Part shown: positions 1,949 through 45,490 of the stretch, piece by piece
Layout: each line of letters begins with the position of its first letter
Numbering within the stretch: the first letter of the stretch is position 1
Source of the DNA: an uncultured Veillonellaceae bacterium
GTDB lineage: Bacteria; Bacillota; Negativicutes; JARBTT01
Reading direction: 5' to 3'
NCBI GenBank assembly: GCA_963805085.1
Contig: CAWDTA010000002.1
Location: 160,001-224,000 of the forward strand
DNA: 64,000 nucleotides
Position numbers and translations under genes: made by a program
Notes under the pieces: model-generated
What the model was told of the DNA's origin: nothing
The model's input: the letters and a program-made list of their open reading frames with translations, nothing else
Database searches by the model: none

Positions 1949-2752
1949 TTACAGAGCGACAATTGTTATTCCGTTTTTATTGGCAATTTCAAGGACTTTT
2001 TCCTCTTCTACTAAAATTGTTTTGCCAGCTTCCATTACCAAAGCTTTCGCTCCGACTGTACACATGGATTCTATGGTCTTTATCCCAACCGCTGGTACAT
2101 CAAAACGGATATCCTGCTTCGGTTTCGCAACCTTTGCTACGACAACACCACCACGGCCTAACTTGCCACCACGTAAAATACATTCATCCGTACCTTCAAT
2201 GGCTTCCACTGCCATCACTGCTAGATTTTTCACGACAACGGTTTGACCAATATCAAGACCGCCAATCGCCTTGGCCATTTTAAAACCAAATTCCATATCT
2301 GCCTGTTCATCTACATTTGGTTCACGCTCTGTAAGTGTACCCTCTTTTACGATCAAAGAACGAATCAATGCGGTTTGATCAAAAACAGTAATGCCTTCTA
2401 TCGCAAGCTCGCGAACGAACGCCAGCATTAATGTATCATCGTTATTATCTGGCAAAGCTGCTAAGATTTTTTTCATGCGATTATCAAGCATTACTTTACC
2501 ATCAAACATCAATTCTTTGGTAACTTTGCCAAGCATCGTTACTCTTGTAATATTATTTTGCTTTAAAAATTCAAAAATTGCATCTAATTGACCAACACCA
2601 ATTTTTTCTATTTTTTCAACGTGTTCCGCTAATTCTTTTTCTACCGACTCTACCAAAGCGACTGTAAAAACATTAAAGCCCATACCTTTAGCAGCACGAG
2701 CAAATTCTACAGGCAATTTACCAACACCAGCCAACAACCCAATTCTCTCCAT
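1949..2752 (-). CDS. lpxI: UDP-2,3-diacylglucosamine pyrophosphatase LpxI
   Basis: IGLLAGxGxLP, DIGQTVVV, AVEAIEGTD, QDxRFDVP motifs; start moved to ATG at 2752 after GGAGG. Confidence 0.95.
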   Translation of the reverse strand: MERIGLLAGVGKLPVEFARAAKGMGFNVFTVALVESVEKELAEHVEKIEKIGVGQLDAIFEFLKQNNITRVTMLGKVTKELMFDGKVMLDNRMKKILAALPDNNDDTLMLAFVRELAIEGITVFDQTALIRSLIVKEGTLTEREPNVDEQADMEFGFKMAKAIGGLDIGQTVVVKNLAVMAVEAIEGTDECILRGGKLGRGGVVVAKVAKPKQDIRFDVPAVGIKTIESMCTVGAKALVMEAGKTILVEEEKVLEIANKNGITIVAL

Positions 2753-2781
2753 ACTTGTTCCTCCGAATAGCATTCAGCTCA

Positions 2782-3600
2782 TTACTCACTCGTCTCTTTA
2801 CGTCCGCGACAAATTCCCCGTTCGGCATTACGCAAAAACCGCAAAAGATGTTCGACTTCATTGCACGAATCAACTTCTTGTTCAATTAATGCAATTGCTT
2901 GCGTTAAGCTAAGACCAGAGCGATAAAGTAATTTATATGCTTTTTTAATATTACGCCGAGATTCAATCGCAATCCCTGCACGAGAAATTCCAACACTATT
3001 TAAACCAGACACTTTTGCTGGATGACCATCAACAATAGTATAGGGAACAACATCTTGTACAACTTTCGAAGCTCCACCAATCATTGCATTACGACCAACT
3101 TTTACAAATTGATGAATTCCCGTTAAACCGCCAATTACCGCACGATCTTCAACAATAACATGACCTGCCAGCGTTGCAGCATTGGACATAATAACATTAT
3201 TGCCAACGATACAATTGTGAGCGACATGTGTATATGCCATCATTAAGCAATCATTTCCGATACGTGTTTCTTCGCCTTCACCTGTCGCTCTATTTACAGT
3301 TGCACATTCACGAATCCTAGTATTATCTCCAATGAACACATAGGACTTTTCACCGGCAAATTTCAAGTCTTGTGGTTCCGCTCCGATGGATGCGCCTGGG
3401 AATATCACACAATTTTTACCTATACTAGTCCAGCCGTCTATAACAACATGTGCACCAATCTTTGTACCATCATCAATCAGAACATTCTCACCAATAACCG
3501 CATATGGTCCGATTTGTACATCTTTGCCAAGTCGCGCACTAGGATGTACAACTGCCGTCTCATGCACATTCCGCAAAACAACTACCTTCTCTGGTTTCAT
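2782..3600 (-). CDS. lpxA: UDP-N-acetylglucosamine O-acyltransferase
   Basis: Hexapeptide repeats, PQDLKF, HVAHNC, IHQF; start moved to ATG at 3600 after AAAGGAG. Confidence 0.97.
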   Translation of the reverse strand: MKPEKVVVLRNVHETAVVHPSARLGKDVQIGPYAVIGENVLIDDGTKIGAHVVIDGWTSIGKNCVIFPGASIGAEPQDLKFAGEKSYVFIGDNTRIRECATVNRATGEGEETRIGNDCLMMAYTHVAHNCIVGNNVIMSNAATLAGHVIVEDRAVIGGLTGIHQFVKVGRNAMIGGASKVVQDVVPYTIVDGHPAKVSGLNSVGISRAGIAIESRRNIKKAYKLLYRSGLSLTQAIALIEQEVDSCNEVEHLLRFLRNAERGICRGRKETSE

Positions 3601-3788
3601 AAGTATCTCAGCTCCTTTTCCTCTTAAATTTATATGAACGCCTACACGTAAACTTCTCCTTAATTCACCAACACCTATATATAGTCCAGACAGTCTGTCT
3701 AAAATAAACGACTCAAATTTCGCCAAAATCAGCTATTATAGTAGGAAAGTAGTATAATAGCTAAATATTTCATACCAAAACAGCTGAT

Positions 3789-4232
3789 TTACTCATTATT
3801 TTCCGGCGTTTTTAACGCAAACGTAAAATCACCTTGCGCAACCATTTGATCTTCCACATATGCCTCACAATGTAATTTTCCAATAGAACCACGTATTTTT
3901 ATTAATTCTGCTGTCATTTTCAATTGATCTCCCGGCACAACAGGCTTTCTAAACCGTACATTTTCCATGCCGGCAAAGAAGGTCACTTTCCCGCGGTTTT
4001 CTGCTGGGTAAAGCATTGCCACGCCACCAACTTGTGCCATTGCCTCCAAAATTAAGACACCTGGCATAATAGGATTGCCAGGAAAGTGCCCTTGAAAATG
4101 AGTTTCTGTCATTGTCACGTTTTTTATACCAACAGCTCGTTTCATTGGTTCTAACTCAATAATCCTATCCACTAATAAAAACGGGGAACGGTGCGGCAAT
4201 ATTTTTTGTATATCAGTTACTGATAAAATCAT
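3789..4232 (-). CDS. fabZ: 3-hydroxyacyl-ACP dehydratase
   Basis: LPHRSPFLLVD and FQGHFPGNPIMPGVLILEAMAQ. Confidence 0.97.
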   Translation of the reverse strand: MILSVTDIQKILPHRSPFLLVDRIIELEPMKRAVGIKNVTMTETHFQGHFPGNPIMPGVLILEAMAQVGGVAMLYPAENRGKVTFFAGMENVRFRKPVVPGDQLKMTAELIKIRGSIGKLHCEAYVEDQMVAQGDFTFALKTPENNE

Positions 4233-4249
4233 AATAAACTCCTCCTCTT

Positions 4250-5077
4250 TTACTTACTAAGCCCAGCGGATATCTGCTTTGCAAGTTCTGTATTAATGGC
4301 ATGGCTAGATTTTACAGCGACAATATGTCCGCGTACCCGTCCAACCAGACGAATATCACCAATGATATCGAGTACCTTATGGCGTACCAATTCATCTACA
4401 AATCTAAGCTTCGTTAGCCATTTTTCATCATTATATACAATGACGTTTTCTGGCGTTCCACCTAACCCCAAGCCCATTTTTTGCAAGGCTTCTATTTCCT
4501 GTTCATAGGCAATGGTTCTAGCTGGTGCTATTTCTTTATGAAAAATTTCTGCTGTAATCTCATAATCTGCATATTGAATCCCCACCAGCTCACTTGGATT
4601 GACAGAAGTAAAGCTAACTCTAAAACCATCGTAAGGTAATATCATGACAAACTTATCATCTTGTCTTATAATATAAGTTCGATCAATGATGATTTCCCTG
4701 CTTTCTTCTTCTTGCTCTCTAACACCAGCACTTTGGATTAACTCAAAGAAAACCAAAGCACTACCATCGGTTACTGGTGGTTCTACGGCATCAATTTCAA
4801 TATAGCAATTATCTATTTGTAGAGCATGAAAAGCTGACATCAAATGCTCTATTGTAAAAACCTTCGCCGTTCCTGATTCAATCGTTGTTGCTCTAACAGT
4901 AGCCGTTACATTGTCAGAAATCGCAGCGACCCGTGGTGAATCTTCTAGATCAACACGAATAAACACAATGCCCGTATTTACTGGAGCAGGCTTTAACCTA
5001 ATTGTGACCTCACAGCCCGAATGTAAACCAATCCCAGTATAGGCTACATCTTTTTCAATTGTCGTTTGGTACTGCAT
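4250..5077 (-). CDS. lpxC: UDP-3-O-acyl-GlcNAc deacetylase
   Basis: GIGLHSG, TIEHLMSA, RHKVLDIIGD; start moved to ATG at 5077. Confidence 0.97.
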   Translation of the reverse strand: MQYQTTIEKDVAYTGIGLHSGCEVTIRLKPAPVNTGIVFIRVDLEDSPRVAAISDNVTATVRATTIESGTAKVFTIEHLMSAFHALQIDNCYIEIDAVEPPVTDGSALVFFELIQSAGVREQEEESREIIIDRTYIIRQDDKFVMILPYDGFRVSFTSVNPSELVGIQYADYEITAEIFHKEIAPARTIAYEQEIEALQKMGLGLGGTPENVIVYNDEKWLTKLRFVDELVRHKVLDIIGDIRLVGRVRGHIVAVKSSHAINTELAKQISAGLSK

Positions 5078-5112
5078 AAATAAAAATCCTCCTGACATGA
5101 TAACCTTTGTTT

Positions 5113-5137
5113 ATTCTACAAAAAATTAGCTCATCCT
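5113..5137 (-). promoter_or_regulatory. Sigma-H-like promoter upstream of lpxC
   Basis: gcAGGA-N17-GAAT on the minus strand. Confidence 0.5.
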
Positions 5138-5161
5138 GCAAGCATAAAAAGAAATTTTTAT

Positions 5162-5923
5162 TTATTTTACCAAAACACGCTTACTAGCATTCATTTGATA
5201 TTCAATTAATGCTTTATAATCTTGTCCCACATTTGAGGTTGGATTAAGAAAAATGTCTTGCGTTGCTCCTGTTTCAACAATCTTTCCTTTATCCATTAAA
5301 ATGATCTTATCAGCCACATTTAAAGCAAACGATAATTCATGGGTAACGACCAGCATTGTACTCGATCTATATTTTGCAAGCTCTTCCATGATAAGGAGAA
5401 CCTCTCGAACTAGCATAGGATCAAGCGAAGCCGTTGGTTCATCCCACAGGATTAGTTCCGGTTCTAACACAAGCGCTCTAGCAATGGCAACACGTTGTTG
5501 TTGCCCCCCTGATAGTACATTCGGCCTCTTTTGTAGTTCTTTTTCTAAGCCTACTTTCATTAATGCTATTTTTGCTTTTTCATAAGCTACTTCCCTTGGC
5601 TCATTCCCCATAATCAGGCCCAACATCACATTTTCTATCGCAGACAACCGTGCTATTAAATTAAAATGCTGAAAAACAAAACCGATTCGTTTACGCATAG
5701 CAAGCAGCTCAGTTACATTCAAGGTTGTAACATCAATGGAATCAAAGAAGATACTTCCTTCATCTGGCTCAATTAAGCGATTAATCATCCGAATTGTCGT
5801 CGATTTTCCACAACCAGATGGTCCCATTAAAACGAGGGTCTCACCTTGCTTTGCCGTTAAATTAATATGATCAACAGCTTGAACTCCACCAAATTGTTTT
5901 GAAAGATTAGAAATTGCAAACAT
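5162..5923 (-). CDS. ABC transporter ATP-binding protein (GlnQ/polar amino acid type)
   Basis: GPSGCGKST, LSGGQQQRVAIARAL, DEPTASLDP. Confidence 0.93.
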   Translation of the reverse strand: MFAISNLSKQFGGVQAVDHINLTAKQGETLVLMGPSGCGKSTTIRMINRLIEPDEGSIFFDSIDVTTLNVTELLAMRKRIGFVFQHFNLIARLSAIENVMLGLIMGNEPREVAYEKAKIALMKVGLEKELQKRPNVLSGGQQQRVAIARALVLEPELILWDEPTASLDPMLVREVLLIMEELAKYRSSTMLVVTHELSFALNVADKIILMDKGKIVETGATQDIFLNPTSNVGQDYKALIEYQMNASKRVLVK

Positions 5924-5943
5924 ATGATCACCCTTTATACAAA

Positions 5944-8262
5944 TTATTTAAATTTTAGCTTCTGCCGATTTAAACGTTCTAGTATTCCTGGTCTTCCGTT
6001 TGGAATGACAATTTCACGCATGATTTCAGTAAAAGACATTCCTAGTGATTTTCCAGCAAATATCTCTTCTTCCGAAACCGGTGTAATTTTTTCCGTAATC
6101 AAAGCGATCAGTAAGCCAAAAAACATTCCAATAACAGGAACTAGATACCAACTAACGTAAGGGATTCCCGCTCCGGAAAAATAAAATATAAAACAAAGCA
6201 AAATGGCCCCTACCACCATTCCATAGACATTTTCACGATAAGCTATACTTTTTACTAACTGTTTACTAGATTGGATCATACCTTTTTGCTGTTTTTGCAC
6301 ACTGTTACTTAATCTTTGATTACGCAAAGCTGACATAACCGCAGTATGGTCAAAAGCTAATAAAACCAGTGTAATCACAAATGCGGTAAGTCCAGCAAGT
6401 ACTGCTTGTACTTCGTTTAACACCTGATAAGCTTGTAAGTATACATTCGGTTCGATGGCGCCAATATTCGATTCAAAAATGCCAATGTTTTGATGCCCAA
6501 CAACCCCATAAACAATTGGCTTAATATTTTCTAGCCAGATAGAATGATCTATCATAATCTGCAATCTTTTATTTGGTATGACTTGACCATTGATCATCTT
6601 ATTCATTAAGGTAATGGAACTATTCATTTCTTCATCATTCAATTTTGGGGCGGATACTTGTAACGTTTGGAGTGCTTCACTAACATTTGTAAAATCAGTA
6701 TTTGCCAACTGAGTCAATCTTTTATTTGCATCAATTAAATTTTCTTTTGTCTTTCCTTTATTAAACGCTCGCAATGAGCTATTTAATCTATTTCCATTAT
6801 CGGCCATTGTCGATAAAATATTTTTTGTCGCAATGGCTTGTTCATTGACACTATTTAGCCCATTGAGCAATTCTCCGAAGGCATCCATTTTCTCTTGTGT
6901 TTCTTTTAATGTTTCTATGGCTAGTGATACATCGGGGTTGATCAAACGTACTAATCGCAGCGTTCCCAGCAGCTTTGTCATTGCCTTTGATGAATTATCA
7001 ATGCGATCTTGAATTGCTTGTACATCAACCGTTTCCAATTTTTCAGTGGCACTATTAATTGAGATAACTGCATCATCCATATTGCTTAAGGTTCTCTGCA
7101 CATTTGTTTCATTCTCATTATAACTTTGCAAGGTATCTAAAGCTAACTTGCTTACTATATTGCTTTCCTTAGCAAAACTAGGCAATTCTTTCGTTATTTT
7201 TTCCGTTTGCGATAACGCATAAAGAAGCTCATCTCGGGGGCTTTGCCACGTCGCTGTTCCAGCATAGGCTGCCACCTTATCTTTATCAAGCAAATACACA
7301 AGATTACTTTTTAGATTACTTCCGTCTCCCTGCGTAATCACTCCAGTATAGGAGCCATTCGCATTTGCTTCAGTTAATGACACAGTAATATTATTTTTTT
7401 GCAGGGCATCACCAACTTCTATTTTTTTCTCGCCTTCCCCCTGCAGTACTACAGTATTTCCTTTTGCTAACTGCACATTCTTTTCTGGTGTTACAAAAAC
7501 TTTTGTTTGATATGCTTTTAGAAATTTACGCAACTCTTGCATGGTACTTGTCAGATGAGCAATATCATCATTACTACTATCGACAGATACATATTTTGCA
7601 ATCTTCGGCTGTAAATTTTTATATAAAGCTGTTACGATATTTTCTGCCAACAATACCGGATTCTCCGGTTCTAAACCAGCAGGGAAACTCACTTCTATCA
7701 TTTTATTTGTATTAAGAATCGCCTCTACTTGGCTGGTTACACTGGCAATTTGATCTGTACCGGCTAACACAACTCCAATATTAGGACCACTGTGATAAAC
7801 AAAATCTACACCTGAAATCGCTTGTAGTTGTTCCATAGTCATATCTACGGCACCCGTTGGTACACCACGAATATTGAGTCTTGGTTCTGTAATAATACTA
7901 ATCCCCACCCCACCAGGAATATTAGAAAACATTTTTTCTAAATTTTCATATACAGTTTTATTTTTATATTCACTCGGCAAAGAAACAAAAAAATTCGCCT
8001 TTTGCGCAATTCCCGGTCCTTCTTTATACTTTGCTCCTACTAGACTCTCAGCAATAATCTTTTCTAATTGCAGTTGACCATTTGCTTTGCTATCTTCGGA
8101 CATTTGTATGATCAAATCATACTCTCCATAATCGCCAACTAAACTTACTAGTTTTTCTTTAAAGTAAAAATTTGCTCCATACGAAACTGCTTTGGCAAAA
8201 GCCGAACCCAATAGGATACTGACAAGTAAAAGAAAAATTATATCGCGTTTAAAAAATTTCAT
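5944..8262 (-). CDS. Large membrane protein: N-terminal TM, about 580-aa extracytoplasmic domain with coiled coil, C-terminal TMs with an EAA-like ABC permease motif
   Basis: C-terminal EEEIFAGKSLGMSFTEIMREIVIPNGRPG resembles the EAA loop; directly upstream of the ABC ATPase; start moved to ATG at 8262. Confidence 0.65.
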   Translation of the reverse strand: MKFFKRDIIFLLLVSILLGSAFAKAVSYGANFYFKEKLVSLVGDYGEYDLIIQMSEDSKANGQLQLEKIIAESLVGAKYKEGPGIAQKANFFVSLPSEYKNKTVYENLEKMFSNIPGGVGISIITEPRLNIRGVPTGAVDMTMEQLQAISGVDFVYHSGPNIGVVLAGTDQIASVTSQVEAILNTNKMIEVSFPAGLEPENPVLLAENIVTALYKNLQPKIAKYVSVDSSNDDIAHLTSTMQELRKFLKAYQTKVFVTPEKNVQLAKGNTVVLQGEGEKKIEVGDALQKNNITVSLTEANANGSYTGVITQGDGSNLKSNLVYLLDKDKVAAYAGTATWQSPRDELLYALSQTEKITKELPSFAKESNIVSKLALDTLQSYNENETNVQRTLSNMDDAVISINSATEKLETVDVQAIQDRIDNSSKAMTKLLGTLRLVRLINPDVSLAIETLKETQEKMDAFGELLNGLNSVNEQAIATKNILSTMADNGNRLNSSLRAFNKGKTKENLIDANKRLTQLANTDFTNVSEALQTLQVSAPKLNDEEMNSSITLMNKMINGQVIPNKRLQIMIDHSIWLENIKPIVYGVVGHQNIGIFESNIGAIEPNVYLQAYQVLNEVQAVLAGLTAFVITLVLLAFDHTAVMSALRNQRLSNSVQKQQKGMIQSSKQLVKSIAYRENVYGMVVGAILLCFIFYFSGAGIPYVSWYLVPVIGMFFGLLIALITEKITPVSEEEIFAGKSLGMSFTEIMREIVIPNGRPGILERLNRQKLKFK

Positions 8263-36214: not shown

Positions 36215-36352
36215 CTAACATTTTTTATATTTTTTTCTTGTTGCTTCTCCGCCCCGAATATGGCGTTCTGCTTTATTCTCTTCTAATATTACTCTAATCT
36301 TTGCCGCTAACCTTTTATTGATAAGAGGCAATCGTTCAATCATATCTTTATG
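36215..36352 (-). CDS. spoIIID: spoIIID 3' half (codons 38-82), separated from the 5' half by an integrated element
   Basis: Manual translation HKDMIERLPLINKRLAAKIRVILEENKAERHIRGGEATRKKYKKC*, matching the SpoIIID C-terminus (ERLP...RHxRGGEAT). Confidence 0.95.
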   Translation of the reverse strand, partial: HKDMIERLPLINKRLAAKIRVILEENKAERHIRGGEATRKKYKKC

Positions 36353-36377
36353 GAACGATTAACCAAAAATGAACGGT
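36342..36377. repeat. Attachment site at the mbl-proximal end
   Basis: Core ATATCTTTATG (36342-36352) plus arm ACCAAAAATGAACGGT (36362-36377). Confidence 0.9.
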
Positions 36378-36385
36378 CACACGAA

Positions 36386-36479: not shown

Positions 36480-36692
36480 CTATTTTTCAATATACTTAAT
36501 ACACTTTTCTGCTAAAAACTTTACAATACCATTTGCTTGCCTATTTTCATAAAAATCTACCATTAACGTATTGAATTCTAGTATGTCCTCTACCTTGATA
36601 TTAAATACACCGTAACCTGCATTAACTAATATACCATTTGCCATTAGGCGAGCAGTTCGTTTATTGGCATTCCAATAAATTACTCCAAACAT
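36480..36692 (-). pseudogene. C-terminal fragment of a Fic/Doc family protein
   Basis: YWNANKRTARLMANGILVNAG resembles the second half of the Fic motif (FxDGNKRTAR); the catalytic His and N-terminus are missing. Confidence 0.7.
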
Positions 36693-36702
36693 AAAAGACT
36701 TA

Positions 36703-37335
36703 TCACCGACTTAATTTTTTATCAATATAATCCTCCATGATACCACGATATTCGGCGTTTTTCCCCTCTACCTTTAAATTTTCCTTTACCTTAAGCAAGA
36801 TTGCCTTTGTCCATTGCCCCTGAGCTTTGTAATGTGCTAATTTATTGCGAAGTGTCTCTAACGCAGCTTTACGATTTGTCTTTAAGAAAACACCTACACA
36901 ATCACAATTCAAATTCAAGGTCACATCTAAATCATTATTCGTTTCCCTATCTTCAGAGTAAATTGTTCCGTCTGATTTATATTTTATCAGCTGAACTTTA
37001 GAACGATCAAGTGGATTTATGGTTAACACAACATTCCCACGATGTGCATCACAAGTCATATCCTCTTTTCGGTGCCCCCTATGACCTAAACAAACGCCTA
37101 GCATATTACGATAATCTAACTCTAGATTTTCATCTACCGTCTTCGGAATATAGTGCTCTATAGTCATAGTATCCTTAGCAATTCTTCTCATGCAATATGC
37201 ACATATATGACCTTGCTCAATTAATAAAGCTTCTCGAACATTCTCTTTTTGTGAAAATCCATCATAATAAGCACCATTTTGTTGTTTGTATTTTATCAAG
37301 CTTGCTGGCTCTTGTCCCTTCTCTATAAAAATCAT
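36703..37335 (-). CDS. HNH endonuclease, Septu PtuB / retron-associated type
   Basis: EQGHICAYC...IEHYIPK...YRNMLGVC...TCDAHRGN; immediately downstream of an AAA ATPase. Confidence 0.85.
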   Translation of the reverse strand: MIFIEKGQEPASLIKYKQQNGAYYDGFSQKENVREALLIEQGHICAYCMRRIAKDTMTIEHYIPKTVDENLELDYRNMLGVCLGHRGHRKEDMTCDAHRGNVVLTINPLDRSKVQLIKYKSDGTIYSEDRETNNDLDVTLNLNCDCVGVFLKTNRKAALETLRNKLAHYKAQGQWTKAILLKVKENLKVEGKNAEYRGIMEDYIDKKLSR

Positions 37336-37339
37336 GATG

Positions 37340-38611
37340 TCAATCTCCCAATATAGTTGTTTCTAAATCCAACGTAATTTGGGCTTTTACTATATCAGGA
37401 TCATTGTCGTCCAACTCACCCATTAACTCTTCTAAAATAACTTTGGCTTTCCTATACTCTTCTTCGTCAATTGCTTGGTAGAAACCATCAAATTTATCTT
37501 TTACTTCTTTTGCACGTTCACCACTATGTTGAAAATAGGATAACACATCATTTACTTGATACCCATAAGCAGATGGTCTATACTCAATATCCATATCATT
37601 CTTAATGGTAATTAGTTGCTCATTTTTACAAGAAGCAATAATCAAGGGCGAATGCGTTGTAGTAATAAATTGTGTGCAAGGAAACGTTGTTTTTAACGCA
37701 TCAACAATTTTCCATTGCCATTTAGGATGTAAATGCAAGTCCAGTTCATCAATGAGAACAATCCCCGGCGTTTTACTGGTTACTTCTTTACGTAAATTTG
37801 GATTTAACACCGCCATACGATATGCGATATCCATAACCATCCAAATTACCGATTGATAACCAGAACTTAATAAGTGAATAGGAATGTTTTCTTCTTCATT
37901 TATACTATATACCAATTGACCTGTTCTCTTATGAAACCGTACTCCTTTGACCTGTTTTTCACACATAATACTCATAAAAGTAACAATTGCTTCTTTTACT
38001 GCTTCATACTCAGAAATTTTTTTATCTTCTTGCCAAGAAATTTCCTCCATCCGTTTGCACCAATTTAGCAACATCTTTGCATTAGATTCCTCTGCTAAGC
38101 AATCTATATAACCAACACTTCTAGTGTAATTCTCCCGAAATACATCTGTTGCTTTTTCCCGTTTTTGCGCCCACATTCTAGCAGCACTTTGATAATTAAT
38201 CAACGGTACTATTTTTTCGGTATCATCCAGCATTTCTTTACTAGCTCTGCAAATATCCCTAGGTTCTACTGTTGTCCTGCCTCTTAAAGTTTTCTTTTGC
38301 CTACCCCATGCAAATTCTTGATTATCTAAAATAGCCGTACATTCAACTTTTACTGGATATTCTTGTTTTATATTAATCGATCCATCACCAGTTAGCGTAC
38401 TTTCCAATCGAACTTCATCTTGGCTAATGTGTTTTGTATTAATTTCATTAACTCCCGCTAAAAAGCCACCTAACCCAACTGATATTGCTTCCAATATAGA
38501 TGTCTTTCCTACACCGTTATCCCCAATTAATATATTAAATCCAGCTTTAAAATTTAGAGCTACATCTTTAATTCCTTTAAAATTTTTAATCAGAATTGAC
38601 TGTAATTGCAA
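37340..38611 (-). CDS. AAA/ABC-like ATPase, Septu PtuA type
   Basis: GDNGVGKTS, LSSGYQ, GIVLIDELDLHLHPKWQ, QFITTTHSP; TTG start after AGGAGG. Confidence 0.85.
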   Translation of the reverse strand: MQLQSILIKNFKGIKDVALNFKAGFNILIGDNGVGKTSILEAISVGLGGFLAGVNEINTKHISQDEVRLESTLTGDGSINIKQEYPVKVECTAILDNQEFAWGRQKKTLRGRTTVEPRDICRASKEMLDDTEKIVPLINYQSAARMWAQKREKATDVFRENYTRSVGYIDCLAEESNAKMLLNWCKRMEEISWQEDKKISEYEAVKEAIVTFMSIMCEKQVKGVRFHKRTGQLVYSINEEENIPIHLLSSGYQSVIWMVMDIAYRMAVLNPNLRKEVTSKTPGIVLIDELDLHLHPKWQWKIVDALKTTFPCTQFITTTHSPLIIASCKNEQLITIKNDMDIEYRPSAYGYQVNDVLSYFQHSGERAKEVKDKFDGFYQAIDEEEYRKAKVILEELMGELDDNDPDIVKAQITLDLETTILGD

Positions 38612-38874: not shown

Positions 38875-40410
38875 TTATATAGCAGCCGCATGGGTAATCT
38901 CCAAATCGGAAAATAATTTCAAATAAACTTGGAGCTCACCTTCTACGGTCACAACAATTTTATCAATGACCTTTCTCAGCAAAGCATTATCAATAAGTTC
39001 TGCATTTAGCACGGCTTGAATACTACCACAATACTTACGAACCACTTCGTCAATCCGACTTAAAATAGAAGTATTCCCTCTGATAGCACTAAGTTCATTC
39101 TCGTATTTGGCTATTGCCAAATTTAATTCAGTGGTTCGTTCTTTGAGTTCATCAATCGTAATAGCGTCAACTTCAAACATTTCTGTTTGTTTTGATTTTG
39201 CTTTCTTGAGCCTTGCCAATTCAGCCAATATAAAAGGTTCCGACAGTTCATTATCTTGCGGTTTATATTGTTTTCTAAATTCGGTTATTGTTTGCTTTAA
39301 CAGCTTGTCCTTCGATGATACCAACCCGCCCAAATAGCTTTTAATCTCCTCGATCAGTTCTTTTTCATCGATAATTGTATGATTGTTACAGAAATCCATG
39401 CCGTTAGCGTTCCTACCAGAACAGCACCACCGTATGTATTCATTAACGTACTTTCTCTGTGTCCTTCTGAAGCTATAACCGCAATCACCACATTTGATAA
39501 GAGTACTAAAACAATATTTGTTTGATTGACGTTTATTGGTTATACGAAAATTTTCTGTTCGCTCAGCGAGCAAAGATTGTGCTTTAGCAAAAAGTTCCTT
39601 ATCAATAATAGTAAGTTCTGGCTTGTCTACAATAAATTGTTTATCAACGCTATTCTTCACTCGTTCACCAGTCAAAAAATCCTTAACCGATTCTTTGCCA
39701 TTGATAACCTTACCTGTATAAAGCGGATTGGTTAGTATCGTAGAAATTGCTTGCTGTGACCACCGGCATTTACGTTTTGTTACTAACCCTTCCTTATTTA
39801 ATAGCTGTGAAATCTTGTTGGCACCATGCCGCTGATTTACATAGTAATCAAATATGCGTTTTACAACCTTTGACTCTACTTCATTTATTGTTAGATTAAA
39901 ATATTCACCTACTGTTTTATCATAACCATAGACAATATTAGGAACCCGCCCCTTTTCGGCATTACGTTTTTTACCAAACTTTACACGTTTAGAAAGATTA
40001 GCCGATTCTTCCTGAGCAACAGCTGCCAATATTGTCAAGGTCAATTCACCATCATTGCTAGACATATTGGCCGTTACGAAGCGGCAATCAATATTTAATG
40101 ACTTTAGTTTACGAATGCTCTGGAGAAAGTCTACGACGTTACGCGCAAGCCTAGATACATCTTTTACAAATACGCATTCAAACTTTCTTCGCTGAGCATC
40201 AAGCATCATACGGTTGAACTCTTTACGATTTTTTAACTTAGTCCCACTAATCCCTTCGTCAGCATACAACTCAACAAGCTCATAATTATTTTTAACAGCA
40301 TACTCTTCAAAAAATTCTTTCTGTGCTTGCAGACTTAATAGCTGCTCGTCCTTTTCAGTTGATACCCTACAGTAAGCGGCAATTTTTTGTTTTCCATCAC
40401 TACCAACCAT
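38875..40410 (-). CDS. Large serine recombinase (SpoIVCA/CisA-like integrase)
   Basis: AAYCRVST (catalytic Ser), DEGISG, SRLARN, recombinase domain, zinc ribbon CGDCG...WCC...C, coiled coil; start moved to ATG at 40410 after GGAGG. Confidence 0.96.
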   Translation of the reverse strand: MVGSDGKQKIAAYCRVSTEKDEQLLSLQAQKEFFEEYAVKNNYELVELYADEGISGTKLKNRKEFNRMMLDAQRRKFECVFVKDVSRLARNVVDFLQSIRKLKSLNIDCRFVTANMSSNDGELTLTILAAVAQEESANLSKRVKFGKKRNAEKGRVPNIVYGYDKTVGEYFNLTINEVESKVVKRIFDYYVNQRHGANKISQLLNKEGLVTKRKCRWSQQAISTILTNPLYTGKVINGKESVKDFLTGERVKNSVDKQFIVDKPELTIIDKELFAKAQSLLAERTENFRITNKRQSNKYCFSTLIKCGDCGYSFRRTQRKYVNEYIRWCCSGRNANGMDFCNNHTIIDEKELIEEIKSYLGGLVSSKDKLLKQTITEFRKQYKPQDNELSEPFILAELARLKKAKSKQTEMFEVDAITIDELKERTTELNLAIAKYENELSAIRGNTSILSRIDEVVRKYCGSIQAVLNAELIDNALLRKVIDKIVVTVEGELQVYLKLFSDLEITHAAAI

Positions 40411-40452: not shown

Positions 40453-40614
40453 TTAAGCTGAATGCCTAACATCATAACCGATATCATCATCACCAGTCTT
40501 ATCATTGATTTCTCTATTAACTTTATTTATAATCGCTGAAGCTAAAATTTTAGGTAGATACTTGTCCACCGCATCTTCACTATTAGGATTAACAAACGTA
40601 ATTTTAAGGCTCAT
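40453..40614 (-). CDS. 53-aa protein directly upstream of the recombinase; candidate recombination directionality factor
   Basis: Manual translation MSLKITFVNPNSEDAVDKYLPKILASAIINKVNREINDKTGDDDIGYDVRHSA*; strong RBS GAGGGGGAG; stop 42 nt before the recombinase ATG. Confidence 0.7.
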   Translation of the reverse strand: MSLKITFVNPNSEDAVDKYLPKILASAIINKVNREINDKTGDDDIGYDVRHSA

Positions 40615-40767
40615 AGTAAACTCCCCCTCACATATTAAAAAATTGATTAGCCACCAACTATAGTTTTGTATAGTAAATCTTATTGTTATGACACCAAAAA
40701 TATAACCATAAAATTTTACCTACATAAGAAATACCCATAATTCAAAACCCTTGCTATGGTTCCGAAC

Positions 40768-40799
40768 AAAAAAGGCTCCACGTCAGACCACGCGAAGCC
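40768..40799 (-). terminator. Terminator downstream of the tRNA remnant
   Basis: GGCTTCGCGT-GGTCTG-ACGTGGAGCC followed by TTTTTT on the minus strand. Confidence 0.65.
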
Positions 40800-40812
40800 G
40801 TGAATTTACTAA

Positions 40813-40874
40813 TGGCAGAGAGGGATGGATTCGAACCCTTGGCACCTTGCGGTACAATTGATTTGGAGTAAACT
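40813..40874 (-). pseudogene. Degenerate 3' part of a tRNA-Ser gene
   Basis: Minus strand AGTTTACTCCAAATCAATT-GTACCGCAAGGTGC-CAAGGGTTCGAATCCATCCCTCTCTGCCA: long variable arm, TTCGAAT loop, GCCA end; mismatched stems and no 5' half. Confidence 0.75.
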
Positions 40875-41205: not shown

Positions 41206-42174
41206 GTGGTTCATATATTTTTTTTAATCGGGATAGTATCAACATTTATTATGCTTTCATTACTTCCAAATACTTCTTTTGGTCGTAATAGAAGCATCAC
41301 GGCATTGTTTATGTTCGTTTATTCTTCATTGTATTTTTTCATTATTCAGTATGGATTAACTGTAAATAATTCTTTTAAAATTCCTCTCTTTTTTGTAGCA
41401 TTAATTTTAATTTTATATTTATCAACGGCCGATAGGTATATTAATCTAAAATTGGATTTAGATATGCTATTTAAAATTGTTTTGTTTATAATGATACCGA
41501 TAGTAGTATGTTTTTCGTTTCCAACCGCTAATAATCAATTTCACTTAATTGATATATTAATTGTTGCTTTTGTTTTTGGAATAAATCAATCACGTTTTAA
41601 TAAAACCACAATGTTATATCAAGAAAGCACAATTGAATTTTATGGATCGTCTACTACAGCTCATCTTCTAATTTTGTTTATTTTTCTGGGCTATAGGAAA
41701 ATTAATATCAATCTATTTTTCATTAATACAATGGATGCATGGGGATTAACTTTGGTAGTTACTTTTTTATGTTGTTTTTTCGCAATTTTTATTGGAGTAA
41801 AATTAAACTATCTTAGTTTTAATTTCAAAAAAGTTAAAACTAAAACTTTACTAATATTAACTATTTTTAATTTTTTTCATATAGCAATAGCAGAAGAAAT
41901 TATCTATAGAGGATTTGTCTATAATTATCTACGACAGTTCATCGGTGGAGGAGATTGGATACCACTGGTATTGACAACTTTATTATTTGGGTGTCACCAT
42001 ATTAGCTTTGGTGGCAGAAGAATGTTTGTACTTTCTTCTATAGCTGGTTTCTTTTATGGTTTAATATATATGCTTACAGGAAACCTATTAACCTCGGCAA
42101 TTATTCATACTATTACTAATATGGTTTGGCGATTATTTTTTGTTATAAGATCTAATGTAGAGGCGCAAAAATGA
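41206..42174 (+). CDS. CPBP (CAAX protease/Abi) family intramembrane metalloprotease
   Basis: AEEIIYRG, FGCHH and HTITN motifs; multi-TM; very AT-rich. Confidence 0.9.
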   Translation: MVHIFFLIGIVSTFIMLSLLPNTSFGRNRSITALFMFVYSSLYFFIIQYGLTVNNSFKIPLFFVALILILYLSTADRYINLKLDLDMLFKIVLFIMIPIVVCFSFPTANNQFHLIDILIVAFVFGINQSRFNKTTMLYQESTIEFYGSSTTAHLLILFIFLGYRKININLFFINTMDAWGLTLVVTFLCCFFAIFIGVKLNYLSFNFKKVKTKTLLILTIFNFFHIAIAEEIIYRGFVYNYLRQFIGGGDWIPLVLTTLLFGCHHISFGGRRMFVLSSIAGFFYGLIYMLTGNLLTSAIIHTITNMVWRLFFVIRSNVEAQK

Positions 42175-42361: not shown

Positions 42362-42493
42362 CTATCCATAAGACGTATCCTTACCGCTCAATTTCTCAAT
42401 AAATACTTCTTCCGCTCTGAGCTCTTGCATAATTACTTCTTGCCGGATAGTATTTTGATCCAGCGAACTTACTCTTACATAACCGATTTTCAT
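42362..42493 (-). pseudogene. Truncated small serine resolvase (43 aa)
   Basis: Manual translation MKIGYVRVSSLDQNTIRQEVIMQELRAEEVFIEKLSGKDTSYG*. Confidence 0.85.
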
Positions 42494-42636: not shown

Positions 42637-43821
42637 TTAATTTATATGCCTGTTATCATTAACTCGCTTTATGTACCGATTAAATTGAGGTACAGTAAAG
42701 TCCACTTCACCATAGCGGGGAGCATAGATAAACCCCTTATAAATCAATTGCCCTCTGACTGGCGAAATACTTTGCACACCTGTATTCATTTTGCTAGCTA
42801 TTTCGGCAATCGTACATGGTAATTCACCACATTCAACCATAGCAAGCATAAATTGCTTTTCCTTTGGTGTTGCTCGATCATACCGCACCTTGAAAAAGCT
42901 GTCATCCAAACTTCTCTCAAAATCCGGATAAGCTGCCTTCACAGATGCTAGATCAATAGTCTTATCTTTAATAAACGCCCAAACCTGTTTTCCATATTCC
43001 TGAAGAAAATAAGGATATCCTTCGGTAATTCTTAGTATTTCACCAATAGCGTCATCACTAAACGTTACATCCATTTTTTTAGCAGGCTCTACTAACGCCA
43101 ATTTAGCCGCCTCTGCTTCTAAAGAACCAATCGAAATAAAGCTAAATAGCCGTTCAGCATAGGATTTTATATCGCCAGCAATCTTGGTCACCTTCGGCAA
43201 GCCTGCTGAAATTAACGTCACAGGCAACCCCTTTTGATTTGCTCGATGCAAGGCAGTAATTAATGCTTCAAATTCATCATCTTTTAAATATTGTATTTCA
43301 TCAATAAATAGACAAACTGAACTTTCGCTATTTTTTGCAAGCGTTCCCATGGATACTAATAATTCCGTAAGATCATTAGAAAAATTTCCTGTATCCGATA
43401 CCCCTACTGCTGCATCCACTTCATCATTTATCCCTACACTTATTTCCCCCTCTGGAGAGTAAGTAATTTTAAAAGCTTTTAATACTGACATTGCTTTTTG
43501 AAAATAATTTTTTGCTTTTGCCTTAACGCTCATTTGTTTTATTAATTTTTGTATATGTAAAGAAATAGAGACTTTAAAAGACGAACGCTCTGACACTTCA
43601 ATGTGTTCATATAGGACATCATACTCGTCAGCAATCTCTTCAATTTTGTTTAAGAGTACGGTTTTCCCAACACCACGCAAGCCATAGTAAACCACCGAAC
43701 GAGCAGGATAGCCATGTGCCACATAAGCAATAATTTCTTTTGCTGCCTCAATGGTATCATCACGCCCAGCTAAATAATTTGGTACTAAACCCGCTCCCGG
43801 AGTATAAGGATTTATTATCAT
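42637..43821 (-). CDS. AAA-family P-loop ATPase with probable C-terminal winged helix
   Basis: NPYTPGAG, GLRGVGKT, LFIDEIQ, TEGYPYFLQ. Confidence 0.85.
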   Translation of the reverse strand: MIINPYTPGAGLVPNYLAGRDDTIEAAKEIIAYVAHGYPARSVVYYGLRGVGKTVLLNKIEEIADEYDVLYEHIEVSERSSFKVSISLHIQKLIKQMSVKAKAKNYFQKAMSVLKAFKITYSPEGEISVGINDEVDAAVGVSDTGNFSNDLTELLVSMGTLAKNSESSVCLFIDEIQYLKDDEFEALITALHRANQKGLPVTLISAGLPKVTKIAGDIKSYAERLFSFISIGSLEAEAAKLALVEPAKKMDVTFSDDAIGEILRITEGYPYFLQEYGKQVWAFIKDKTIDLASVKAAYPDFERSLDDSFFKVRYDRATPKEKQFMLAMVECGELPCTIAEIASKMNTGVQSISPVRGQLIYKGFIYAPRYGEVDFTVPQFNRYIKRVNDNRHIN

Positions 43822-43931: not shown

Positions 43932-45161
43932 CTATAATTTTGCTACTACATCTAAATTCACACTATAAACATTCATTTTACCACTTTGCTTAACACTCAG
44001 CATATCTTTAGGTATTTGCTTAATCCAACCACGAATTGTAGATGGACTTAATTCAGCAATTTCTACTAGATTTTGAATACTAACACCTTCATCATCAAAC
44101 AAAGTACTTTGCACCAAAGCATGCAATATATTTCGGATTGGTTTATCTCCATTTGCATATTTTTCAATTTTTTCTTTATAAAAATTATACTGTTCGCCTT
44201 TTCCTTCAATAATAATACATAAATTTTCGATAGTTTCTTCTATAAGTTCCAAAAATCCAATAACAAAAGGAGTTAAATCACCTTTATTTTTATAATCATT
44301 CACTTCCTTAAACATATCATAATATTTTTTAAGCTTATTTTTAATCGTATACGACAAACTAAAACCAACTACTGATTCTAATTGCTGATTTAATAGATAG
44401 CTACTAATGAATCTTGCCATTCTGCCGTTGCCATCATAAAAAGGATGTATATAACCAAACATATAGTGAAATACTGCTATATTCACGAAATCGTTTAATT
44501 TATTATTGTTTAACATATCTAGTGCAACTGTCATAGCTGTAATAATTTTGGCTTCGGGATACATACCCTTATGAATCACCTTTTGGCTTGATGAAATTAT
44601 TTCAACAATTTCTTTTCTAAAAATATCACCATCTGGAGCATTATCTGGATTATCAGCTTTTACTTCTGCTAAAACGAATTCATCATAAAGTTTTCTAATA
44701 TCCTGACAGGATTTTAAAGTAAATTCCTGTCCATATGACAACATCATATATTTTTGTACCAAACCATACAAACGCTTCTTTTCCTTATTTTCTGTTTTAT
44801 CATCAATTAGCTCTCTGATTTCTTTACGTGTACTGTGAACACCCTCAATCTCGTTAGTCAGCTGAATTTCATCTACAATACACTTTAACGTAAATTGAGT
44901 CAAAGCAATCGGCGGTACACTTTTGGTTATTTTTAAAAGTCTCTTATCCAATTTCAAAATACTGGTTAATAAATTTAAAATTTCTAAATTCATAACAACA
45001 AACGCCCGATTTTCACCAATTGTAAAATCATAACGATAAGTAAACTCGTTATTAAATCTTTCTTTATATGTAGTTTCATAGGCTTCATTATTTTTATAAA
45101 ACAATTTATTTAAAGATTTATACAACACTTGACTCACATCCTTTTTGTCATTATACTTCAC
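43932..45161 (-). CDS. Fic family protein (N-terminal autoinhibitory motif, C-terminal HTH)
   Basis: HPFYDGNGRMAR catalytic motif; TNEIEG inhibitory motif; C-terminal SIQNLVEIAELSPSTIRGWI. Confidence 0.93.
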   Translation of the reverse strand: MKYNDKKDVSQVLYKSLNKLFYKNNEAYETTYKERFNNEFTYRYDFTIGENRAFVVMNLEILNLLTSILKLDKRLLKITKSVPPIALTQFTLKCIVDEIQLTNEIEGVHSTRKEIRELIDDKTENKEKKRLYGLVQKYMMLSYGQEFTLKSCQDIRKLYDEFVLAEVKADNPDNAPDGDIFRKEIVEIISSSQKVIHKGMYPEAKIITAMTVALDMLNNNKLNDFVNIAVFHYMFGYIHPFYDGNGRMARFISSYLLNQQLESVVGFSLSYTIKNKLKKYYDMFKEVNDYKNKGDLTPFVIGFLELIEETIENLCIIIEGKGEQYNFYKEKIEKYANGDKPIRNILHALVQSTLFDDEGVSIQNLVEIAELSPSTIRGWIKQIPKDMLSVKQSGKMNVYSVNLDVVAKL

Positions 45162-45283: not shown

Positions 45284-45430
45284 TCAATTTTCACCGTTCA
45301 CTTTTGGTATATCTTTATGAACAGTACTTTTACTAACACCAAACACCACCGCTGCTTGCCGAACTGTATGTTTACTCTGCAAAATATGATCACAAATATC
45401 TAAGACACGTTTACGAATATATTCCTTCAT
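45284..45430 (-). CDS. spoIIID: spoIIID 5' half (codons 1-40) running into the element; 48-aa truncated product
   Basis: Manual translation MKEYIRKRVLDICDHILQSKHTVRQAAVVFGVSKSTVHKD|IPKVNGEN*; signature TVR...FGVSKSTVHKD; RBS AGGGGG. Confidence 0.95.
   Translation of the reverse strand: MKEYIRKRVLDICDHILQSKHTVRQAAVVFGVSKSTVHKDIPKVNGEN
45293..45319. repeat. Attachment site at the spoIIID-promoter-proximal end
   Basis: Arm ACCGTTCACTTTTGGT (45293-45308) plus core ATATCTTTATG (45309-45319). Confidence 0.9.
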
Positions 45431-45460: not shown

Positions 45461-45490
45461 TGTATATGCAAACAATTAGGCAAGCAGAAC
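45461..45490 (-). promoter_or_regulatory. Sigma-E-like promoter of spoIIID
   Basis: gTTCTGCT-N14-CATATACA; spoIIID is sigma-E dependent in B. subtilis and clostridia. Confidence 0.45.

Follow-up and report, generated by a model that had tools for sequence, protein, structure and literature searches.

A small conserved gene beside the serine recombinase of spoIIID-splitting elements encodes a candidate recombination directionality factor

Comparative sequence evidence places a small open reading frame (ORF) as a conserved part of the recombination module of a family of spoIIID-intervening elements, the other part being a large serine recombinase. Its product is slightly favored as the recombination directionality factor (RDF) that works with this recombinase, whose gene begins 42 nt further on, a reading to which we give a probability of about 0.55. 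The data also point to a sigma-E-type promoter upstream of the pair, as would suit an element that interrupts spoIIID itself.

Introduction

Mobile elements that split sporulation genes have been described in several species. The skin element of Bacillus subtilis splits sigK, and the 64-aa protein Skr is encoded directly upstream of spoIVCA on the same strand, with a 101-nt overlap between the two genes (PMC6957869). Expression of skr-spoIVCA is mother-cell specific (PMC6957869) and is driven by a sigma-E plus SpoIIID promoter. The gin element in gerE of Bacillus cereus is a non-phage element with three recombinase genes; its GirX protein, of 42 aa and with no known motif, is a proven RDF in vitro, and GirC and GirX are expressed together in mid-sporulation (PMC5595907). 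In the skin element of Clostridioides difficile, the RDF is CD1234, an acidic protein of 72 aa and pI 5.5 whose sigma-E promoter confines excision to the mother cell, and SpoIIID is also needed (PMC5025042). No common fold unites the RDFs of serine integrases, yet their binding site is DBD2, close to the coiled coil; SprB, for example, uses a helix and strands to bind at this place (PMC12286644).

A skin-like element in spoIIID receives a one-sentence mention for Ruminiclostridium cellulolyticum (10.1101/2022.02.25.481979). It has the same target gene as the element studied here, and its RDF, promoter and distribution are not described in the available part of that preprint. A literature search that covered few subscription journals found no paper on how a spoIIID element is regulated or on an RDF encoded by one.

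In this study, we examine a spoIIID-splitting element in one genome of the Negativicutes, and the distribution, conservation and upstream region of a small ORF that it carries, across 401 genomes of the class as well as metagenome contigs.

Results

An 8,967-bp element splits spoIIID in the window

The stretch of DNA analysed, 64,000 nucleotides long and here called the window, contains spoIIID in two parts. Pfam family PF12116 is matched over its positions 1-41 at 45305-45427 (-) and over its positions 35-80 at 36221-36358 (-). The distance from core to core, which is the length of the element, is 8,967 bp. The features of the gene halves, the element ends and the cargo are as follows.

45461-45468 (-): -10 element of the spoIIID promoter, CATATACA; the -10 block CATATA(C/T)A is common to the four upstream regions compared (window, L014, L018 and L019)
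45309-45430 (-): spoIIID 5' segment, from codon 1 to about codon 41, with the attL core at its end (Pfam PF12116)
45319-45309 (-): attL core, CATAAAGATAT, 11 bp, identical to the attR core
45309-45291 (-): left-end inverted repeat, TACCAAAAGTGAACGGTGA, just inside the junction
43932-45161 (-): cargo, Fic-domain protein, SoFic-like (Pfam Fic; PADLOC SoFic, 3.4e-34)
42637-43821 (-): cargo, AAA_16 ATPase (Pfam)
42362-42493 (-): truncated remnant of a small serine resolvase (or invertase), N-terminus-like, 43 aa (translation judged by eye)
41206-42174 (+): cargo, CAAX/Rce1-like membrane protease (Pfam)
40765-40869 (-): partial copy of tRNA-Ser(CGA), the 3' part with its terminator, sharing 90-94% identity with the true gene and with two more partial copies
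37340-38611 (-): cargo, Septu PtuA ATPase (PADLOC, 3.5e-169)
36703-37335 (-): cargo, Septu PtuB HNH nuclease (PADLOC, 2.6e-67)
36480-36692 (-): 70-aa ORF, role unassigned (phrog_11900, of unknown function, 2.6e-13)
36361-36379 (+): right-end inverted repeat, with 3 mismatches to the left-end repeat
36352-36342 (-): attR core, identical to the attL core
36215-36352 (-): spoIIID 3' segment (PF12116 positions 35-80)

A search of the window with the end repeat gave two matches against 0.02 expected. The same repeat occurs in most other elements of the family and is degenerate in G172 (locus L063) and G019 (locus L019). Joining the two ends of the element would give a palindromic attP-like site, the usual arrangement for serine integrases, and the att sites, with inverted repeats around an identical core, fit an enzyme of this type. 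In its in-frame split of a mother-cell gene, the core shared by both junctions, its inverted-repeat ends and its serine recombinase, the window element conforms to the sporulation gene-intervening elements of the skin, gin and SPbeta type. None of the element ORFs scanned belongs to a phage-type gene family. Its cargo includes anti-phage defence genes, namely the Septu PtuA/PtuB pair and the SoFic-like Fic protein.

ARAGORN and Rfam detected no RNA gene in the window, and the tRNA-like stretch within the element is a partial copy. The true tRNA-Ser gene lies elsewhere in the window genome (G000, C2:1768266-1768353), which also holds further long partial copies (C2:1722737-1722833 and C5:298779-298878) and a short one (C2:1770567-1770612). 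The copy in the element looks like a scar left by tRNA-targeting islands. It provides the terminator 5' of the small ORF, which insulates that ORF from upstream transcription.

The small ORF and the recombinase form a predicted operon

Between the cargo genes lies a pair of genes on the minus strand, with the following features.

40799-40774 (-): terminator hairpin and T run, 5' of the small ORF (10 pairs, -17.6 kcal/mol, z -3.2)
40706-40699 (-): -35-like element, GTTATATT, kept in the compared loci
40684-40677 (-): conserved -10-like element, AATAAGAT, 14 nt after the -35
40629-40621 (-): ribosome-binding site, GAGGGGGAG, 6 nt 5' of the small-ORF ATG
40453-40614 (-): small ORF, 53 aa, ATG start, candidate RDF
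38875-40410 (-): large serine recombinase, 511 aa, with Resolvase, Recombinase and Zn_ribbon_recom domains (Pfam)
about 38870-38830 (-): terminator hairpin 3' of the recombinase (-20.6 kcal/mol, z -6.9)

The recombinase aligns over residues 28-489 with YokA, the SPbeta integrase (E 4e-13), and recombinases 65% identical to it occur in Ruminiclostridium and Anaerobacterium records. Its ATG, at 40410, follows the stop codon of the small ORF by 42 nt and is preceded by a ribosome-binding site of its own, GGGAGGAAG; the structure of the 42-nt spacer is unremarkable (z -0.05). Because there are terminators on both sides of the pair, the small ORF and the recombinase look like a single insulated operon. 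The first-pass annotation of this DNA had described a 53-aa ORF with a strong ribosome-binding site 42 nt upstream of the recombinase, a terminator that shields it from upstream, and spoIIID as the interrupted gene, and all three descriptions hold.

The small ORF is a conserved gene

A word-indexed protein search returned 40 relatives of the small-ORF protein, 47-63 aa long and 55-98% identical to it, among them one hypothetical protein of Sporomusa carbonis and one protein from a Negativicutes MAG. When a profile was run against 1.84 billion representative proteins, 27 were found at E<=0.001, most of them 43-62 aa long, and these 27 representatives share a core of K-(I/V)-x-F-x-N-P-N, about six residues, and K-x-L-P-K-I-L-A. 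The family thus consists of tiny acidic proteins of 43-63 aa. Fifteen columns are invariant in alignment A1 (M1, K4, I5, T6, F7, N9, P10, N11, K18, Y19, L20, P21, I23, L24 and A25). For 17 orthologues compared across their first 36 codons, the median dN/dS is 0.14, from the 84 of 136 pairs that were usable in that dS was computable and above 0.05; synonymous sites are saturated in many pairs, and a few pairs exceed 1. The ratio indicates that the small ORF is under purifying selection.

By direct count, the protein of the window carries 9 acidic against 7 basic residues, for a net charge of about -2. An AF2 model (pLDDT 73.5) has residues 1-12 extended, a helix at 13-41 and a disordered tail, and inspection of the sequence reveals neither a signal peptide nor a membrane-spanning hydrophobic stretch. 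Pfam, PHROGs and PADLOC gave no significant match. Against the PDB the profile gave chance-level matches only, the best (E 0.15) to an unrelated polymerase, and the ESM Atlas yielded only unnamed clusters, with scores of about 0.8. Longer or fused forms were sought as well and none turned up, although this counts as weak evidence.

An ORF this small, with no family match and of a kind often left uncalled by annotation, might be a chance reading frame in the intergenic leader of the recombinase. The protein sequence is conserved while synonymous change is saturated, and we reject a chance origin on these conservation data as very improbable indeed. The ORF is more than chance because it has 40 relatives, a dN/dS of 0.14 and the same position beside the recombinase in all eight other genomes that carry it; by this comparison it is a real, conserved gene.

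The small ORF is linked to the recombinase of split spoIIID genes

Nine of the 401 genomes of the class contain the small ORF, and these belong to nine different genera. In each of the eight besides the window genome, the gene that directly follows it on its strand is an orthologous recombinase, 58-85% identical to that of the window. A search of the same 401 genomes with the recombinase found matches at E<=1e-40 in 96 genomes, only ten of which have a full-length match of at least 58% identity. The next-best matches are those of G007 (46%) and G028 (54%, partial), and the remainder are at most 40% identical. In all ten genomes with an orthologous recombinase, spoIIID is split at the same codon and both halves were found; nine of the ten have the small ORF directly 5' of the recombinase. 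Beside the recombinases of G007 and G028, which are non-spoIIID recombinases (46-54% identity), no relative of the small ORF is present, and spoIIID of G007 is intact.

Element length ranges from 7.4 to 26 kb in the carriers whose two spoIIID halves share a contig. Pfam families assigned to 87 ORFs of the other elements include type I restriction-modification, Schlafen/AlbA, Septu-like ATPases, sugar and tricarboxylate transporters, an RND pump and aldehyde dehydrogenase, besides others. Fic and AAA_14-DUF4143 recur, and no family is universal other than the recombinase domains. The only genes common to the spoIIID-splitting elements are the small ORF and the recombinase (9/10 genomes and most metagenome loci). 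The small ORF is therefore encoded in the same mobile element as its recombinase, as expected of an RDF.

The tenth genome, G172, is a 65%-complete MAG in which the small ORF is internally deleted. Its conserved core is gone; its first codons and its last ones are still in place, as are the ribosome-binding site and the promoter motif ahead of them. The spoIIID 3' half of G172 also ends early, without the conserved C-terminal motif, and the recombinase frame is open. The deleted ORF and the truncated spoIIID half lie at about 6300-6480 and at 13036-13137 of L063 (G172:C11). This natural loss, a single case, fits a small ORF that is kept only while spoIIID needs rebuilding.

Intact spoIIID genes, or empty sites, occur in G128, G116, G006 and G027, which are of the same genera as carriers, and the element has therefore been gained or lost within genera. 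In G072 the element contains an internal attP-like site (L012, about 13148) composed of the right-end repeat, the core and the left-end repeat, together with a second, truncated recombinase copy (L012:15213-15800) that is 80-82% identical over about 180 residues. This arrangement suggests two elements inserted in tandem, one of which has decayed.

Metagenome contigs extend the linkage to a distant clade

Search patterns for metagenome contigs were built from alignment A3, alignment A4 being too diverse, and they located the small ORF at 39 loci. A related recombinase follows downstream on the same strand at 32 of these, and half of a spoIIID gene is visible within the 4-kb flanks at 18. Seven loci have no recombinase; five of them offer less than 2.4 kb of downstream sequence, and two, L089 and L100, have 3.7-3.9 kb from which a recombinase is absent. 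Thirty of the 39 loci form a distant clade, with identities to the window proteins of about 30-50% for the small protein and 47-55% for the recombinase. Here cargo separates the small ORF from the recombinase, which lies 0.9-2.5 kb downstream and is followed directly by the 3' half of spoIIID; some of the record names refer to the human gut. One contig, L099, holds a complete spoIIID element of only 3.8 kb (2699-6806), made up of a 200-aa ORF on the opposite strand, the small ORF, a 182-aa ORF and the recombinase. Relatives of the small ORF were not found in viral contigs, and a collection of genome contigs gave only four related loci, all already known from the other searches. Among sequencing runs, none of RNA was listed as containing the stretch, and DNA runs matched at most 0.12 of its sampled words.

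Co-occurrence of homologues with recombinases in split sporulation genes had been proposed as a check on the first-pass idea that the ORF is a candidate directionality factor, and it is borne out in all eight other genomes and, as regards the recombinase, at 32 of the 39 metagenome loci. Linkage to the recombinase and to split spoIIID (9/10 genomes and most metagenome loci) thus strengthens the candidacy considerably; the role itself is still a deduction.

The recombinase might instead excise the element unaided, with the small ORF as conserved cargo whose product, for instance a regulatory or membrane peptide, has an unrelated job. An RDF may be dispensable for some large serine recombinases (PMC12286644), the G172 recombinase frame is open in a genome that has lost the small ORF, and L089 and L100 have a small ORF with no recombinase within the 3.7-3.9 kb downstream. 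Yet the rest of the cargo varies while the small ORF persists beside recombinases that range from 47% to 96% identity, it was not found beside the non-spoIIID recombinases of G007 and G028, and a membrane role is at odds with the lack of a signal peptide or membrane-spanning stretch. We regard unaided excision as quite improbable.

A sigma-E-type motif precedes the small ORF

The -35-like and -10-like elements upstream of the small ORF follow the pattern GT(C/T/A)ATAWW, 13-14 nt, (A/C)(A/G)TAnnnT, which is present 58-94 nt before the small-ORF ATG in 17 of the 18 close loci. The pattern was written after these loci had been viewed, so this count is not an independent test. It is also present in 30 of 30 distant-clade loci, none of which was used to define it; these 30 represent one related clade with 19 distinct small proteins. 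The -35 and the spacing are kept while the surrounding DNA diverges. The pattern is rare in the window genome, with 51 matches on both strands of 4.2 Mb, or about 0.0009 expected per 150 nt. Most of the 51 are inside genes, the pattern being too loose to define a regulon, and only the match at spoIID is informative.

Similar sites precede sporulation genes of these bacteria. Upstream of spoIVA, all four relatives examined have G(T/G)(C/A)ATAWW, 13 nt, CATATATT; examples from upstream of spoIIIAA and spoIID are GTCATAAA-14-CATAGCTA and GTCATATT-14-CATAGAAT, and spoIID of the window genome is preceded by GTCATATA-14-CATATTCT. The pattern itself scores before spoIIIAA in two of four relatives and before spoIID in two of five genomes, one of them the window genome. 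The spoIVA, spoIIIAA and spoIID sites agree with the sigma-E consensus of B. subtilis. The small-ORF motif matches these promoters in its -35 and its spacing and only partly in its -10, which is weaker; it begins with A at many loci, that of the window among them, and three loci have CGTA. The best-supported reading of the conserved motif is a sigma-E-type promoter, which would make expression of the operon dependent on sigma-E.

This reading bears on two first-pass proposals. A trigger independent of SpoIIID had been called for, and the logic is sound: with spoIIID itself split, a promoter of the skr-spoIVCA kind, which takes both sigma-E and SpoIIID, is impossible here, and the conserved motif lends support. 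A particular -35, GTCATA, had been put forward as sigma-E-like. That hexamer is present at 40692-40687 (-), within the spacer of the conserved motif (40706-40677), but its conservation fails already in L067 and L068, the closest relatives. A promoter built on it (TCATAAC, 12 nt, TATACAAA) likewise exists in the window, and we rejected it as the main promoter on account of this unconserved -35.

The one close locus that lacks the pattern is that of G019, where about 160 nt separate the spoIIID 5' half from the start of the small ORF, which has no motif of its own. It could be read there from the spoIIID promoter. Such read-through would still be sigma-E dependent, as judged from B. subtilis.

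An alternative is that the small ORF is an RDF that answers to another trigger, whether read-through, a sigma factor that acts later or a promoter of the housekeeping kind. The imperfect -10 and the G019 locus would accord with this, as would the many weak sites that a simple sigma-70 scan gives in AT-rich DNA, and the C. difficile recombinase CD1231 is described as sigma-A driven (PMC5025042). We nevertheless consider another trigger improbable: the -35 and the spacing are conserved amid diverging DNA and equal those of the spoIVA and spoIIIAA promoters, and read-through in the window would be blocked by the terminator.

It is also conceivable that the small protein belongs to the recombination module in some other capacity, whereby it stabilizes or times the recombinase, blocks re-integration only, or marks the excised circle. 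The linkage data speak to membership of the module and not to the action of the protein, and in the window the small ORF is predicted to be co-transcribed with the recombinase and therefore cannot be the sole switch there. Against this, all studied sporulation-gene elements with a serine recombinase use a small RDF, and in the distant clade the small ORF has its own conserved promoter motif apart from the recombinase, as the SPbeta RDF switch does. A role in the module other than that of RDF is in our view unlikely, if a reasonable contender.

Discussion

If the small protein is the RDF, excision would proceed as follows. Once sigma-E is active in the mother cell, the promoter GTTATATT/AATAAGAT would drive the operon and both proteins would be made. 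The small protein would bind the recombinase, which would then recombine attL with attR at the shared core. The 8,967-bp element would leave as a circle and spoIIID would be rejoined in frame, and the copy of the chromosome in the forespore would retain the element. We infer four parts of this scheme, namely recombinase binding, directionality control, sigma-E dependence and mother-cell excision.

The proposed RDF has likenesses to each of the known systems. As in skr-spoIVCA, a small RDF-candidate gene is directly 5' of a serine recombinase gene and the gene that is split encodes a mother-cell regulator, although the two genes are separated by 42 nt here and overlap there. The gin element is likewise non-phage and pairs a serine recombinase with a tiny motif-less protein; it differs in target gene and recombinase clade. 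CD1234 is also a small acidic protein, but the CD1231 recombinase is sigma-A driven and is not in an operon with it. The small-ORF protein was compared with Skr, GirX and CD1234 by size, charge and gene position only, and with 53 aa it resembles these proven RDFs in size. As for SPbeta SprA/SprB (YokA/YotN), the recombinase aligns with YokA and the predicted secondary structure of the small protein is of the same kind as that of SprB. The profile found no match among PDB entries, the YokA-YotN fusion 9dxd included, and the protein is accordingly not assigned to the SprB/YotN family. Nor does it have the marks of an Xis or excisionase-type protein, as it belongs to no Pfam family, is modelled as a single helix and has a net charge of about -2.

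The sporulation genes of the host have also been considered. Searches of G000, an 83%-complete assembly, did not find sigE, spoIVA or spoIIIAA. All three sit in a single 0.4-Mb block (1.56-1.95 Mb) of the complete genome G072, and the lack of one such block could explain their absence from G000. Among the ten carrier genomes spoIVA was found in seven, the others being G000, G172 and G036.

The gene sigK is also split in G000 (C5:700980-704380, locus L106), by an element of about 2.8 kb with a different serine recombinase on the opposite strand. It is split in G034 and G019 too, and intact in G072.

The small-ORF family is previously undescribed and tied to one clade of serine integrases. If the RDF role is true, the family would provide a new integrase-RDF pair, with an 11-bp core and sites of about 50 bp, and a possible orthogonal tool for genome engineering. 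A split spoIIID is not a one-off, as it occurs in 10 of the 401 genomes of the class and on many metagenome contigs, and annotators should expect it and avoid scoring the gene as missing or as a pseudogene.

The two skin elements that have been studied need SpoIIID for their excision, whereas here SpoIIID itself must be rebuilt; the switch must therefore sit one step earlier, probably at sigma-E. A wider proposal, which we offer tentatively as possible rather than probable, is that the mother-cell cascade of the window genome and several relatives is gated by two successive excisions, in which sigma-E would lead to the RDF and recombinase, these would rebuild spoIIID, and SpoIIID would then permit excision of the second, unrelated element from sigK. 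In the same proposal, the spoIIID elements would be a widespread family (in Negativicutes and on metagenome contigs, some labelled human gut) that parks defence and metabolic cargo safely in a gene used by the mother cell alone, its only fixed parts being the new RDF family and the integrase. Placement of the switch at sigma-E is a testable prediction on how mobile elements may be wired into a developmental cascade.
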